64,000 bases of DNA from Escherichia coli (GTDB lineage Bacteria; Pseudomonadota; Gammaproteobacteria; Enterobacterales; Enterobacteriaceae). Location of the stretch: NCBI RefSeq assembly GCF_050920415.1, contig NZ_CP169309.1. One strand, written 5' to 3'. Within the stretch, counting starts at the first letter, position 1, and each line of letters starts with the position of its first letter. Of this stretch, positions 23,708-57,382 are shown one piece after another. The position numbers and the translations under genes were made by a program. The notes beneath the pieces are model-generated. The model had not been told where the DNA came from. It searched no databases and worked only from the letters and a program-made list of their open reading frames with translations.

Positions 23708-23970
23708 AGTATCACCTCATCAGGTTAACCATCACCACCAACGACGCCAATCGACTGGTGGTGAACTGTGTAAGGTTGGCGTAACCGGCTACTCAAACCC
23801 GGCGCTTCCGAAGAAGCCCTCACACAGCCCACCATAATTTGGGCATAGCCGTGCTTAGCGCACAAAAAAACCGCTTAACGCGGTATGCGTTGAGTAGTAT
23901 CCCGGGACGCCAATCCCGTGTGCCGATTTTGCGGCAACGCACAGAATATAGCGCCGGATAAATCATGTCG

Positions 23971-35694: not shown

Positions 35695-35730
35695 CTGATT
35701 GAATTGTAATGGCGCGCCCTGCAGGATTCG
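35695..35730. other. prophage-host junction (att site overlapping the 3' end of argU); exact core not determinable without the distal copy
   Basis: int stop at 35694 and tRNA 3' end (CCA) at 35710; the second att copy is off-window. Confidence 0.5.
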
Positions 35731-35786
35731 AACCTGCGGCCCACGACTTAGAAGGTCGTTGCTCTATCCAACTGAGCTAAGGGCGC
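35710..35786 (-). tRNA. argU: tRNA-Arg (anticodon UCU)
   Basis: Reverse complement reads GCGCCCTTAGCTCAGTTGGATAGAGCAACGACCTTCTAAGTCGTGGGCCGCAGGTTCGAATCCTGCAGGGCGCGCCA; D- and T-arm consensus, anticodon loop CUUCUAA, 3' CCA. Confidence 0.9.
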
Positions 35787-46576: not shown

Positions 46577-47299
46577 GTGGCGACACTCTTTATTGCAGAT
46601 CTTCATCTCTGCGTGGAAGAACCGGCGATCACCGCCGGTTTTCTGCGTTTTTTAGCGGGGGAAGCCCGCAAGGCCGACGCGCTGTATATTCTTGGCGATC
46701 TGTTTGAAGCATGGATTGGCGATGACGATCCCAACCCACTCCATCGCCAGATGGCCGCAGCGATCAAAGCGGTATCCGATTCCGGCGTTCCCTGTTATTT
46801 CATTCATGGCAACCGTGATTTTCTGCTCGGCAAACGCTTTGCCCGTGAAAGCGGGATGACGTTATTGCCGGAAGAAAAAGTGCTCGAACTTTATGGCCGT
46901 CGGGTGCTGATTATGCATGGCGACACGCTGTGCACCGATGACATCGGTTATCAGGCTTTTCGCGCCAAAGTCCACAAGCCGTGGCTGCAAACGCTATTCC
47001 TCGCCCTGCCGTTGTTTGTGCGCAAACGCATTGCCGCGCGAATGCGAGCGAACAGCAAAGAAGCCAACAGCAGTAAATCGCTGGCGATCATGGACGTTAA
47101 CCAAAACGCGGTGGTCAGTGCGATGGAAAAGCATCAGGTGCAATGGTTGATTCACGGGCATACGCATCGCCCGGCGGTGCATGAACTGATCGCCAATCAG
47201 CAACCTGCTTTTCGTGTCGTGTTGGGTGCCTGGCATACGGAAGGTTCGATGGTGAAAGTCACGGCAGATGACGTTGAGTTGATCCATTTTCCATTTTAA
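46577..47299 (+). CDS. lpxH: UDP-2,3-diacylglucosamine diphosphatase
   Basis: Track ORF 240 aa, GTG start, [50 protein letters not shown]... Confidence 0.95.
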
Positions 47300-47328
47300 A
47301 AAACGCGCAACTTTGCTGATTTCATAGC

Positions 47329-47346
47329 CGCGCAACCGTTTTCCTT
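47329..47346 (+). promoter_or_regulatory. putative PurR operator (PUR box) upstream of purEK
   Basis: CGCGCAACCGTTTTCCTT resembles the PurR box consensus ACGCAAACGTTTTCNT; ~70 nt upstream of purE. Confidence 0.45.
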
Positions 47347-47416
47347 GCTCTCTTTCCGTGCTATTCTCTGTGCCCTCTAAAGCCGAGAGTTGTGCACCAC
47401 AGGAGTTTTAAGACGC

Positions 47417-47926
47417 ATGTCTTCCCGCAATAATCCGGCGCGTGTCGCCATCGTGATGGGGTCCAAAAGCGACTGGGCTACCATGCAGTTCGCCGCCGAA
47501 ATCTTCGAAATCCTGAATGTCCCGCACCACGTTGAAGTGGTTTCTGCTCACCGCACCCCCGATAAACTGTTCAGCTTCGCCGAAAGTGCCGAAGAGAACG
47601 GTTATCAGGTAATTATTGCGGGCGCAGGCGGCGCAGCGCACCTGCCGGGCATGATTGCCGCCAAAACGCTGGTGCCAGTGCTGGGTGTGCCAGTACAGAG
47701 CGCCGCACTGAGCGGTGTCGATAGCCTCTACTCCATCGTACAAATGCCGCGCGGCATTCCGGTGGGTACGCTGGCGATTGGTAAAGCTGGCGCGGCAAAC
47801 GCGGCGTTACTGGCAGCACAAATTCTTGCGACTCATGATAAAGAACTGCACCAGCGTTTGAATGACTGGCGCAAAGCACAAACTGATGAAGTGCTGGAAA
47901 ACCCGGACCCGCGAGGTGCGGCATGA
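47417..47926 (+). CDS. purE: N5-carboxyaminoimidazole ribonucleotide mutase
   Basis: Track ORF 47390-47926; start at ATG 47417 gives 169 aa [49 protein letters not shown]... Confidence 0.95.
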
Positions 47927-48990
47927 AACAGGTTTGCGTCCTCGGTAACGGGCAGTTAGGCCGTATGTTGCGCCAGGCAGGCGAACCGTTAGGCATTGCT
48001 GTCTGGCCGGTCGGGCTGGACGCTGAACCGGCGGCGGTGCCCTTTCAACAAAGCGTGATTACCGCTGAGATCGAACGCTGGCCGGAAACCGCATTAACGC
48101 GCGAGCTGGCACGCCATCCGGCCTTTGTGAACCGCGATGTGTTCCCGATTATTGCCGACCGTCTGACTCAGAAGCAGCTTTTCGACAAGCTTCACCTGCC
48201 GACTGCACCGTGGCAGTTACTTGCCGATCGCAGTGAGTGGCCTGCGGTGTTTGATCGTTTAGGTGAACTGGCGATTGTTAAGCGTCGTATTGGTGGCTAT
48301 GACGGTCGCGGTCAATGGCGTTTACGCGCCGATGAAACCGCACAGTTACCAACTGAATGCTACGGCGAATGTATTGTCGAGCAGGGCATTAACTTCTCTG
48401 GCGAAGTATCGCTGGTTGGCGCGCGCGGCTTTGATGGCAGCACTGTGTTTTATCCGCTGACGCATAACCTGCATCAGGACGGTATTTTGCGCACCAGCGT
48501 CGCTTTCCCGCAGGCCAACGCACAGCAGCAGGCGCAGGCCGAAGAGATGCTGTCGGCGATTATGCAGGAGCTGGGCTATGTGGGCGTGATGGCGATGGAG
48601 TGTTTTGTCACGCCGCAAGGTCTGCTGATCAACGAACTGGCTCCGCGTGTGCATAACAGCGGTCACTGGACACAAAACGGTGCCAGCATCAGCCAGTTTG
48701 AGCTGCATCTGCGGGCGATTACCGATCTGCCGTTACCGCAACCGGTAGTGAATAGTCCGTCGGTGATGATCAACCTGATTGGTAGCGATGTGAATTATGA
48801 CTGGCTGAAACTGCCGCTGGTGCATCTGCACTGGTACGACAAAGAAGTGCGTCCGGGCCGTAAGGTGGGGCATCTGAATTTGACCGACAGCGACACATCG
48901 CGTCTGACCGCAACGCTGGAAGCCTTAATCCCGCTGCTGCCGCCAGAGTATGCCAGCGGCGTGATGTGGGCGCAGAGTAAGTTCAGTTAA
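47923..48990 (+). CDS. purK: N5-carboxyaminoimidazole ribonucleotide synthase
   Basis: Track ORF 355 aa [49 protein letters not shown]... Confidence 0.95.
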
Positions 48991-49007
48991 CCTGGTGCTC
49001 AAATTCT

Positions 49008-49205
49008 TGCCGGATGCAGCGTGAACACCTTATCCGACCTACTAATCCGGTACCCATTGTAGGCCTGATAAGACGCGTCAAGCGTCGCATCAGGCATGGT
49101 GCGCCGATTACCGGATGCGGCGTGAACGCCTTATCCGACTACCAATCCGGTACCCATTGTAGGCCTGATAAGACGCGTCAAGCGTCGCATCAGGCATGGT
49201 GCGCC
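49008..49205. repeat. REP/BIME element: two tandem ~95-bp units of paired REP palindromes
   Basis: GCCGGATGCAGCGTGAACACCTTATCCGACCTAC...TGTAGGCCTGATAAGACGCGTCAAGCGTCGCATCAGGCA repeated twice with few mismatches, between convergent purK and ybcF. Confidence 0.75.
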
Positions 49206-49223
49206 ATATGCTGGATGCTCCCA

Positions 49224-50120
49224 TCACGACAGCGAAATACAGGTCCCCGCTTCGCCCGCCAGCGTCTCTTCAATCCGCGATAAAGCCCCAATCCACGCAG
49301 GTTTACCACGGCTTCTGACATAGCCACTCACCGCCGTTACCTTCGGCCCCATCGCCCCATCGGCTTTGGCAAATGGCGCTAACTCATCCGGTGTGGCATG
49401 GCGAATGGCGCGTTGCTGCGGCGTTCCCCAGTTTTCATAAACCGCGTCAGCATCGGTGAGGATCACCAGTCCATCGGCATTAATCTGCTCGGCAAGCAAC
49501 GCCGCGGCGAGATCTTTATCAATCACCGCTTCACTCCCTGCTCCGTCATCCGTCACCGGAACACCGCCGCCGCCACTGCAAATCACCACATGCCCCTCTT
49601 TGAGCAACAACTCGATGGCTTCGCTGTCGAGAATTTTACGAGGCTGGGGAGATGCCACCACCCGGCGTAAATATTTGCCATCACGCTTCATTTTCCAGCC
49701 GTAAGCCGTTTCCAGTGCCTCTTGTTCTTCTGGCTGATAAACCGGGCCGATAAACTTCTCTGGCTGCAAAAACGCCGGATCATCAGACGAAACTTCAATG
49801 CGTGTCAGCACCGTCGTCACAGGCGGCATCTGCGGCTGTGCGCTCAAACTCTGCGCCAGCATATAGCCAATCATCCCCTGACTTTCCGCCACCAGCACAT
49901 CCAGTGGATACGGTTCGACCTCTTTCCACGCCAGATTCTGTAACGCCAACAACCCCACCTGCGGCCCGTTGCCGTGAACAATCGCCAGCCGATAAGCACG
50001 CGCCAGGCGCGCCAGCGCGGGAACAGCACTGGCAATATTGCGATATTGATTTTCTGCCGTCAGCGCCTCACCGCGCTGGAGTAAGGCATTGCCCCCAAGA
50101 GCTACAACCAGTGTTTTCAT
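49224..50120 (-). CDS. ybcF: carbamate kinase-like protein
   Basis: Track ORF 298 aa [56 protein letters not shown]... Confidence 0.9.
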
Positions 50121-50932
50121 GGTGTTCCTTGTAATAATTGTTGACCAAGCCAGAACCCCAGCAGCGTATCAGCCCCTGACGTATGCCCCAGCGCCAGCAG
50201 CGAATCAATCGCAACAGCGGTACGTTTCGGGCAACTCAGAGCATGAACAAAGTGCAGGAGTGGCGAGGCGAAGTATCCTTGCGCGGCATAACGTAAATAA
50301 TTAACGCTCACCGCTGTGGTAACGAGTTGAAGATTGTCGGAACAGGCAAAAAACGGGCGACCGGAGCGCGCATCTAAAGCGCCATAATACCAGGCTGCCA
50401 GCAGCATTCCCGTTAGCGTGTCATCATGACTCGGCGTTAATCCCGGCCCTTTACCCAGCCAGTGCCGCCAGTCGGTCTTAACGCCATTGAGCGCGGCCTG
50501 AAAACAGTGACGAAACTGGCGTAATTCAGCGGGAAGCGGATCGCCTGCCGCCAACGCCAGCGGCCCGAAAAGCCCGGTTTCCTCCGCGCGTTGCATCCAT
50601 GCCGCTGCAAGTGGTTGAGGATGCGCAGGCGGCGTAATACGCAGCAAACAATAACGCTGTGGCTGTTTAACCGTGAAACGCCCGAGGCGAATCCCTTGAG
50701 CCATAACCTGTGGTCGTTCATTGCCGCATAATCCACCGCATAACGCATCGAATTGCGCGCGGCGAAGCACCCATCCTCCGGGACCGAAACCACTTCCCTG
50801 ACGATGCAGCGTTAACAATTCACCGCTTTCCGTCATCAGGTTAATCGCCCGCCGCCACACGCCCGCTAACCGCCAGGACTGGCGATAATTCGGTGCACTA
50901 CGGCTGGCAAGCAGAGGATGGATGATCGTCAT
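50117..50932 (-). CDS. ylbF: YlbF protein (uncharacterised, allantoin-cluster associated)
   Basis: Track ORF 50117-51025 overlaps ylbE; start chosen at internal Met [32 protein letters not shown]... (271 aa), leaving a 10-nt gap to ylbE. Confidence 0.8.
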
Positions 50933-50942
50933 TGCGCGTTCC

Positions 50943-52202
50943 TCAACCAATCCCCATGCTTTCAGCCAGAGCTTCCAGCGCCTGTTCAAAGCACGCCAGC
51001 GGTGCCCGCACAGTGCCTGCACCAATCTGCCCGATCCCCGCCTCTTTATGGGCGATACCCGTATTGATGAGTGGTGTAATGCCGGTTTCTACCACGCGAC
51101 GAATATCCAGCCCCAGGCACGCGCCCTGGAAATCCCAGCCAGGGATCTGCAACTGCATATTGCGCTCAAGGAAGATTTCTGCCATCTCTTCAGATACCGC
51201 TCTGGCTGCTTCCATGCCACCCGCACCGACAAAGCGCGTTACGCCAGGCGCTGCGATCATCGCGGCACCACCGATACCAAAGGTTTCGGTAATCGCGCTA
51301 TCGCCCATATCCGGGTTCGCCTGCTCCTGCGAGAAGCCGGTGAAAAACAGACCTTGCGGAGTGTTAACTGGCGCAGTAAACCAGCGCTCGCCCAGCCCGC
51401 TGACCCGAATCCCGAACATATTGCCGTTGCGGGTCATAGCCGTGACGATGCTGCCCGCGCGGATCATCGCGCCTGCATCCATCGCCGCCTTGCAATAGGC
51501 CATCGCGAGGTTGAGGAAGAACTGATCGGTCACGCTGAGGAAATCCATCACTTCCGCGATGTGCTGTTTATCGTGATTGAGGCGAGCAATTTGTGGGGCC
51601 AGCGCACGCATTAACAGTGCTGAGGAAGCAATATTGCGCTGATGGAATTCATCGCCCATCGTAATGCCCTGCGCCATCATCGCGGTGAGATCGATACCGC
51701 GCTCCATGCGCCCCAGCGCCGCGCTTAATACCGGCATTAACACATCACGCATCCAGCGATGGCGAGTCAGGACATCTTCGCCGTAAGCGCCAAAACGCAT
51801 CACTTTACCGATACCTTCATTGAGGTTGCAGTACGCCCGGTTACCGTCGGTCACGTTCTCGACCACCAGCATCGGCATACTGGCAGAAGTAATTCCGCCC
51901 ATTGGCCCGACGGCATTCACATGGTGACAAGGAATGAAGTTCACTTCCCCCTGCTCCAGCATCGCCAGTGCCTGCGCTTCATCTTTCGCCCAGCCTTCAA
52001 ACAGACACGCACCCACGCACGCCCCTTTCATGGGGCCGGTCATCTCCTGCCAGCGCATCGGCGGCCCGGCGTGAAGCAGTGTTTTACCCTGATTTAATTC
52101 ATTAATGAGTGAAGACGCCGGTTGCACATCCAGCCAGTGTGGACGAGCGCGACGAATTTGTTCGATAACCGCAGCATTGGCTTGCGCCACTGATGTAAAC
52201 AT
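50943..52202 (-). CDS. ylbE: YlbE protein (DUF1116 family), uninterrupted here
   Basis: Track ORF 419 aa [51 protein letters not shown]... Confidence 0.85.
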
Positions 52203-57298: not shown

Positions 57299-57340
57299 GT
57301 CATACCACACGCCTGATTATTTTTAGCTATGTTGGATTTT

Positions 57341-57367
57341 GCCACGGTTTATACCGTGGCTTTTTTT
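57341..57367 (+). terminator. putative rho-independent terminator after allE
   Basis: GCCACGGTTTATACCGTGGC followed by TTTTTTT. Confidence 0.6.
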
Positions 57368-57382
57368 GTAGTCAATTCAGGT

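Follow-up and report, generated by a model that had tools for sequence, protein, structure and literature searches.

The purK–ybcF gap and its repeat array

The window is a 64-kb stretch of Escherichia coli DNA in which two runs of genes, ppiB-lpxH-purE-purK on one strand and fdrA-ylbE-ylbF-ybcF on the other, converge. This gene order follows the RefSeq annotation of the 100% identical record NZ_CP169399.1, which also supports the placing of purK and ybcF. The stop codons of purK (+) and ybcF (−) are separated by a gap of 233 bp, which is filled by an array of REP palindromes and is wholly extragenic. The features are listed below, with the basis of each assignment in brackets.

47923–48990, + strand: purK, 5-(carboxyamino)imidazole ribonucleotide synthase, last gene of purEK, with stop codon TAA at 48988–48990 (NCBIfam NF004678, 673 bits)
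48991–49008, + strand: spacer of 18 nt from the purK stop codon to the first REP (sequence reading)
49009–49042, + strand: Y1, a degraded Y-type REP with CTAC at its 3′ end (31/34 consensus matches)
49043–49058, no strand assigned: linker TAATCCGGTACCCATT, 16 nt, from the CTAC foot of Y1 to the GTAG foot of Z2a (sequence reading)
49059–49095, − strand: Z2a, a Z2-type REP with GTAG 5′ on the + strand and in the classical orientation on the − strand (repeat search, blastn-short, folding)
49062–49140, − strand: one complete Y-linker-Z2 unit in the ybcF sense (Rfam RF02564 match)
49096–49109, no strand assigned: linker ATGGTGCGCCGATT, 14 nt, from Z2a to Y2 (Rfam alignment)
49110–49142, + strand: Y2, a Y-type REP (blastn-short, folding)
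49143–49158, no strand assigned: linker CAATCCGGTACCCATT, 16 nt, the second CTAC-to-GTAG copy (sequence reading, repeat search)
49159–49195, − strand: Z2b, a Z2-type REP 100% identical to Z2a (repeat search, blastn-short, folding)
49196–49218, no strand assigned: partial third unit, linker ATGGTGCGCC then TATGCTGGATGC, the remnant of the start of a Y REP, forming the right end of the array (Tandem Repeats Finder, direct repeats)
49224–50120, − strand: ybcF, carbamate kinase, 298 aa, with stop codon TGA at 49224–49226 (NCBIfam NF006926, 617 bits)
49241–49390, + strand: C-rich, G-poor stretch in the purEK sense, C/G approximately 2.0–2.2, just downstream of the array (composition count)

Tandem Repeats Finder (TRF) reports a single array at 49007–49218 with a period of 100, 2.1 copies, 92% matches, 2% indels and a score of 366. 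A repeat search identifies direct repeats of 80 nt (93% identity, spacing 100) and 32 nt (91% identity, spacing 101). The same search gives two identical palindromes with 14-nt arms, at 49063–49076/49082–49095 and 49163–49176/49182–49195. The initial annotation had described two head-to-tail units of approximately 95 bp at 49008–49205. The array and its two tandem units are confirmed; the unit length is corrected to 100 bp and the right limit moves to 49218, since a partial third unit, composed of a linker and the GCTGGATGC remnant of a Y REP, comes after Z2b.

The four palindromes, placed by sequence reading and blastn-short, occur in the order Y(+) Z2(−) Y(+) Z2(−) with inverse orientations alternating. 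The placing of a tandem REP/BIME element between convergent purK and ybcF is borne out by the TRF array, these four palindromes and the gene annotation, and the proposed pairing of REP-type palindromes within each unit holds as well, there being two imperfect palindromes per unit in inverse orientation. The foot tetranucleotides are CTAC at 49039–49042 and GTAG at 49059–49062 and 49159–49162. In Y2 an A replaces the first G and one nucleotide is deleted before CTAC, leaving a foot that reads TAC (49140–49142). The Z2 copies carry a long GACGC...GCGTC inner stem with a loop spacing of 4–5 nt. The linker at 49043–49058 recurs at 49143–49158 with two differences, and the 16-nt CTAC-to-GTAG junction linker can be written (T/C)AATCCGGTACCCATT. 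The other linker, ATGGTGCGCCGATT, aligns to the 'l' linker of the naRNA4/REP325 Y-l-Z2 unit (Rfam alignment; PMC4550694). A blastn-short search with Y, Z1 and Z2 consensus sequences places the only REP cluster of the 64-kb window here.

The array is predicted to be highly structured on both strands. Folding of the 242 nt from 48985 to 49226 gives −96.6 kcal/mol for the + strand (z = −4.96) and −101.8 kcal/mol for the − strand (z = −4.16), with 0 of 200 shuffles as stable in each case. For the individual RNA hairpins the energies, + then − strand, are −7.7 and −13.3 kcal/mol for Y1, −15.3 and −14.4 kcal/mol for Y2, and −20.4 and −21.3 kcal/mol for Z2a, the Z2 copies falling at about −20 to −21 kcal/mol. 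The REP hairpins of the array fold with an interior stem mismatch. One pair of the Z2 inner stem is C-G, T.G or T-A in different alleles or copies, a compensatory path that keeps the hairpin.

Two observations concern the coding sequences around the array. The ybcF product has 298 aa in the window as opposed to 297 aa in K-12; the gene is one codon longer, ending at TGA 3 nt nearer the repeat, because the K-12 stop codon TAG reads TCG. An ATG-initiated open reading frame of 89 aa at 49014–49283 (+) spans the entire array and continues antisense to ybcF. NCBIfam assigns it to no family; it is best treated as spurious, a by-product of the repeat, and should not receive a gene call.

Assignment to BIME-2 and comparison with REP325

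Descriptions of REP/BIME elements go back to the 1980s, and the element between purK and ybcF is of a kind already known, an ordinary E. coli intergenic repeat. Of 5,426 complete E. coli genomes, 5,425 contain the 101-nt unit at no fewer than 31 sites each, and usually at 40 or more; with up to 40 pieces counted per record, the values span 31–79 and the median is at least 40. The array is one member of a repeat family dispersed through the genome, and the unit is not unique to the purK–ybcF locus. The description of it as a typical enterobacterial intergenic repeat is upheld by this dispersal, at 31 places or more in practically every E. coli genome.

A REP is an imperfect palindrome with a stem mismatch and a foot tetranucleotide, GTAG or CTAC (PMC3333891), and an E. 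coli REP consensus, GCCGGATGCGGCGTGAACGCCTTATCCGGCCTACGA, has been derived from 224 of 356 annotated REP elements (PMC12306157). The Y elements of the array display these attributes: they match the consensus, are imperfect palindromes with a mismatch in the stem and a GTAG/CTAC foot, and belong to a dispersed, high-copy, extragenic sequence. Compared with the published 34-nt REP consensus GCCGGATGCGGCGTGAACGCCTTATCCGGCCTAC, Y1 matches at 31 of 34 positions, a figure that also holds for the first 34 nt of GCCGGATGCGGCGTGAACGCCTTATCCGGCCTACGA, and Y2 at 27 of 27 contiguous positions followed by the 1-nt deletion (blastn-short). When up to three mismatches are allowed the Y consensus has one match in the window, at 49009–49042, where 0.00 are expected on the basis of 100 dinucleotide-preserving shuffles. 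At this locus K-12, C325 and other strains have Z2 copies identical to Z2a. The comparison with REP families, which the initial annotation had proposed as the check on its reading, therefore finds similarity for both types, the Y copies to the consensus and the Z2 copies to those of K-12.

Which class of BIME is present? In BIME-2 elements, y and z2 REPs point in opposite directions across short linkers and form multiple tandem copies, the number of which varies between loci and strains (PMC3333891, Ton-Hoang et al. 2012). BIME-1 elements consist of a z1 and a y REP with a long IHF-binding L linker and occur as single copies (PMC3333891). The array has alternating inverse Y and Z2 REPs, tandem copies with short linkers (2.1 copies of 100 bp; linkers of 16 and 14 nt) and a unit number that varies from strain to strain (1, 1.5, 2, 3, 5 and 6 units). 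Like BIME-1, also known as RIP/RIB, it pairs a Y REP with a Z-type REP in inverse orientation, but there is no Z1 REP in the array, the Z1 consensus giving only 14-nt end matches in blastn-short, the IHF consensus WATCAANNNNTTR is absent from 48991–49223, and there is more than one copy of the unit. BIME-1 was rejected on these three counts, which in turn support the assignment to BIME-2. The label REP/BIME can thus be sharpened to BIME-2, because Y and Z2 alternate in tandem with short linkers and with neither a Z1 form nor an IHF site.

In further agreement with BIME-2, sequence is well conserved between the tandem copies at the one locus, the array is extragenic and its copy number varies among strains. 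Nothing essential is different, the peculiarities being the three G-to-A changes of Y1 and the base missing before CTAC in Y2. The array is bordered by purK and ybcF, and in E. coli BIMEs lie mostly far from the single tnpA-REP (RAYT) gene (PMC3333891). We estimate a probability of about 90% that the purK–ybcF feature is a BIME-2 of the form Y-Z2-Y-Z2, made up of two 100-bp units, of dispersed-repeat origin and with transcript-stabilizing and gyrase-related functions inferred from its family.

An informative comparison is with REP325, the six-unit BIME-2 located between yjdM and yjdN in K-12. TRF applied to the K-12 sequence gives REP325 a period of 100 bp and 5.8 copies; the period equals that of the array and the order of parts is the same, namely Y, a linker of 13–14 nt, Z2, and a linker of 16–17 nt. 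The two differ in locus and in unit number, six in REP325 as opposed to two here, and their CTAC-to-GTAG linkers are unrelated (AATGGGTACCGGATT in the array, AAATTCCCGCACCCTCC in REP325). The Rfam family RF02564 (naRNA4) represents the 77-nt Y-l-Z2 unit of the REP325 cluster (PMC4550694). This model matches 49062–49140 on the − strand with 73.1 bits (E = 2e-13), above its gathering score of 59.5, and the match spans model positions 1–77 of 77.

Variation at the locus and the allele in the window

The gap between purK and ybcF was surveyed in other genomes using the two joined flanks as query, with 60 genomes sampled evenly down the ranking. The gap classes were as follows.

116–135 bp: one unit, 22 of 60 genomes, including O157:H7
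191–201 bp: K-12-like, about 1.5 units, 23 of 60 genomes
229–233 bp: two units, 5 of 60 genomes
329 bp: three units, 1 of 60 genomes
529–530 bp: five units, 6 of 60 genomes, including ST131 EC958
149 bp: no REP, 2 of 60 genomes
Interrupted gap: prophage, 1 of 60 genomes

Gap lengths of approximately 133, 191–201, 229–233, 329, 529 and 632 bp correspond to 1, 1.5, 2, 3, 5 and 6 units, and alleles with 1, about 1.5, 2 and 6 Y/Z2 units were parsed individually. Strains carry from 0 to 6 units here, in increments of 100 bp, and such differences should be read as natural polymorphism and not as misassembly. Unit number presumably changes by slippage or unequal recombination between the 100-bp direct repeats. 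A possible alternative cause is the REP-associated transposase TnpA-REP, which recognises REPs via the 5′ GTAG and the stem mismatch (PMC3333891). The gap in FDAARGOS_1281, of the 149–152-bp class, holds no REP and instead a boxC-like repeat (CCCTCACCCTAACCCTCTCCCCACAGGGGCGAGGGGAC). Which repeat family occupies the purK–ybcF gap therefore depends on the lineage.

The K-12 MG1655 cluster is orthologous to that of the window. The flanks, Y1, Z2a and Z2b are as in the window and the Z2 elements belong to the TTGAC-loop lineage. The K-12 gap is 194 bp as opposed to the 233 bp with two full units in the window, because an approximately 30-nt deletion in K-12 has left only the first 12 nt of the second Y. 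In addition, the inner stem of the first Z2 has T-A in K-12 where the window has C-G. Two array haplotypes can be distinguished by the Z2 loop, which is TTGAC in the window, K-12 and C325 and TGGC in 500010 and DETEC-P881.

The exact sequence of the array is uncommon, only two records matching it at 99% identity or above. The segments covering lpxH-purE, the ends of purK and ybcF, and ylbE (46577–52202) are about 96–98% identical to all but one or two of the 5,426 genomes, and strain MFDS1022581 matches segments of the window at 100%. Judged by these identities the window comes from a rare, divergent E. coli lineage. The flanks of the BIME are about 96–97% identical to most genomes; since lpxH-purE and ylbE are as divergent as these flanks, this applies to the window as a whole, and a local hyper-divergence around the BIME was considered and rejected.

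The nearest relatives, N96 and 2017-02-2CC, carry a 233-bp two-unit allele like that of the window, and the duplication is therefore real and lineage-wide. In both relatives Y1 is a perfect consensus. In the window Y1 has three G-to-A changes (49018, 49027 and 49037), each of which breaks a stem pair, and the spacer differs from the relatives at 48997, 49002 and 49007. There are thus six changes in 41 nt (48997–49037), compared with a single one in the remaining 210 nt, roughly, of the 255-nt alignment. The cluster may be a conversion patch or reflect local mutagenesis. The three pair-breaking substitutions fall in the first hairpin that the purEK transcript meets, which suggests that constraint on Y1 is relaxed.

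The interrupted gap belongs to strain WS4437A-1 (NZ_CP035822.1), in which a lambdoid/P22-like prophage of approximately 45.6 kb (torI ... intS integrase) separates ybcF from purK. Its junction on the purK side is GCATCGCATCA|TGCATTG|GACACC, that on the ybcF side is GATGTT|TGCATTG|TGCACCAATTGCCGG, and the intact K-12 allele at this site is GCATCA GGCATTG TGCACCAATT. From these sequences the crossover can be placed within about 6 bp (GCATTG), where the first Z2 REP has its 3′ foot. At the equivalent sites, 49093–49099 and 49193–49199, the window is uninterrupted and has GGCATGG. Use of the Z2 foot by a prophage was seen in this one strain; if it were general, REP clusters would be phage integration sites defined by the repeat and not by a tRNA or gene end. 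Both the polymorphism in 100-bp steps at purK–ybcF and the use of the array as an integration site by a prophage in one strain are only mildly new.

Alternative explanations and possible functions

Several questions bear on how the array should be regarded. Is it a real feature of the chromosome? Does it encode an RNA of its own? Does it end transcription, or influence translation, at this locus in particular? A chance tandem duplication or an assembly artefact, unrelated to any repeat family, might be considered given that the exact sequence is confined to the lineage of the window. The two-unit 233-bp gap is shared by three independent assemblies, which excludes an assembly artefact; other lineages have independent two-, three-, five- and six-unit alleles, and the match to the REP consensus is not expected by chance, so that this explanation carries next to no weight. 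A more substantial case can be made for a gene encoding a naRNA4-type nucleoid-associated sRNA, a Y-l-Z2 RNA that binds HU, bridges DNA cruciforms and condenses the nucleoid. RF02564 scores above its gathering score on the ybcF-sense strand (49062–49140), and Qian et al. (PMC4550694) report DNA condensation by two-hairpin REP RNAs together with HU, as well as transcription of many REPs. Against this, the model in effect covers any Y-l-Z2 unit of a BIME-2, and the match therefore indicates sequence family and not function. No sigma-70-like promoter was found in or beside the array, the naRNA4-sense strand would be transcribed only as part of the ybcF operon, the nucleoid phenotype is tied specifically to REP325 (PMC4550694), and strains have anything from 0 to 6 units at the purK–ybcF locus. 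A dedicated sRNA of this type is possible but unsupported, and we consider it improbable. In annotation the naRNA4 match at this position is better labelled 'BIME-2 unit' than as a dedicated sRNA gene.

The remaining two alternatives assign the array a role specific to its neighbours and are less probable again. Strong, G+C-rich hairpins between convergent genes are what a bidirectional intrinsic (Rho-independent) terminator, common to both operons, would provide. A terminator scan of 48500–49700 returned 0 intrinsic sites on either strand, however, and the sequence is a dispersed repeat as opposed to a locus-specific stem-loop. There is no U-run after any of the four hairpins on either strand, and such a terminator is rejected for that reason as very unlikely. 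The second proposal is a translational brake on purK, whereby a REP close to the stop codon stalls the terminating ribosome and leads to tmRNA-dependent down-regulation. It draws on the position of a REP directly 3′ of the purK stop codon and on the discussion of REPs within 15 nt of the end of an open reading frame as translational controllers (PMC12306157). It is equally hard to sustain, because the 18-nt spacer, with about 20 nt to the first paired base, exceeds the limit of 15 nt or less for REP-mediated translational control, a value quoted in PMC12306157. Y1 is moreover the weakest of the hairpins at −7.7 kcal/mol.

We return to the BIME-2 assignment and what it would imply. The initial annotation suggested that the repeat may act as a transcript stabiliser or terminator and as a protein-binding site; these are standard roles of the family and are consistent with the anatomy of the locus. 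Because the operons on both sides lack an intrinsic terminator, the convergent purEK and fdrA-ylbE-ylbF-ybcF transcripts should enter the array and would end further downstream, probably by way of Rho. The C-rich tract at 49241–49390 (+) is, on composition, a possible Rho-loading region for purEK read-through. The 3′ exonucleases PNPase and RNase II would then trim each transcript back to its last stable REP hairpin, and the retained hairpin would protect the mRNA upstream. For purEK the protective hairpin would be Z2b, giving an end near 49195, and for ybcF it would be Y1 or Z2a. This scheme follows the model of Dar and Sorek (PMC6061677), in whose work REPs are present at 24% of Rho-dependent 3′ ends, as protective hairpins. 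No purK or ybcF entry was found among 3′-end supplements of Adams et al., and a literature search combining purK and REP gave no relevant paper.

At the level of DNA, the Y/Z2 array is likely to serve as a site of gyrase binding and cleavage, placed where the positive supercoils generated by two converging polymerases would meet. Such a role would accord with Topo-seq data, in which a subset of BIME-2 elements shows enriched gyrase cleavage, falling mostly in y rather than z2 REPs and not depending on transcription (PMC6379681).

The variation described above suggests how tightly such functions may be specified. As strains carry between 0 and 6 units, the exact number is probably of little consequence, and the range of unit number together with the decay of Y1 points to weak constraint on exact form. 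The presence of 0–6 units and the replacement by a boxC-like repeat argue against a tightly specified function and fit a largely neutral or selfish element. It is doubtful, though somewhat less so than the sRNA gene, that the array goes beyond a passive part, with unit number tuning the 3′ stability of purEK or ybcF mRNA or the handling of supercoils and with the Z2 foot acting as a prophage attachment site. The locus does offer a small natural series (1, 2, 3, 5 and 6 units) in which unit number could be related to mRNA 3′-end stability or gyrase recruitment. The value of the array as a discovery is small, the locus having a K-12 counterpart of the annotated era, and its practical value lies in annotation.

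Elsewhere in the window, Rfam matches above gathering score identify C4 antisense RNA (23754–23839) and isrK (23864–23936) within 23754–23936 on the − strand, a pair typical of the immunity region of P1/P7- or lambdoid-type prophages. A tRNA gene at 35713–35786 (−, 72 bits) may delimit the left part of the window, which is prophage-like. The enterobacterial sRNA STnc480 gives a match at 57305–57371 (−) with 85.5 bits.
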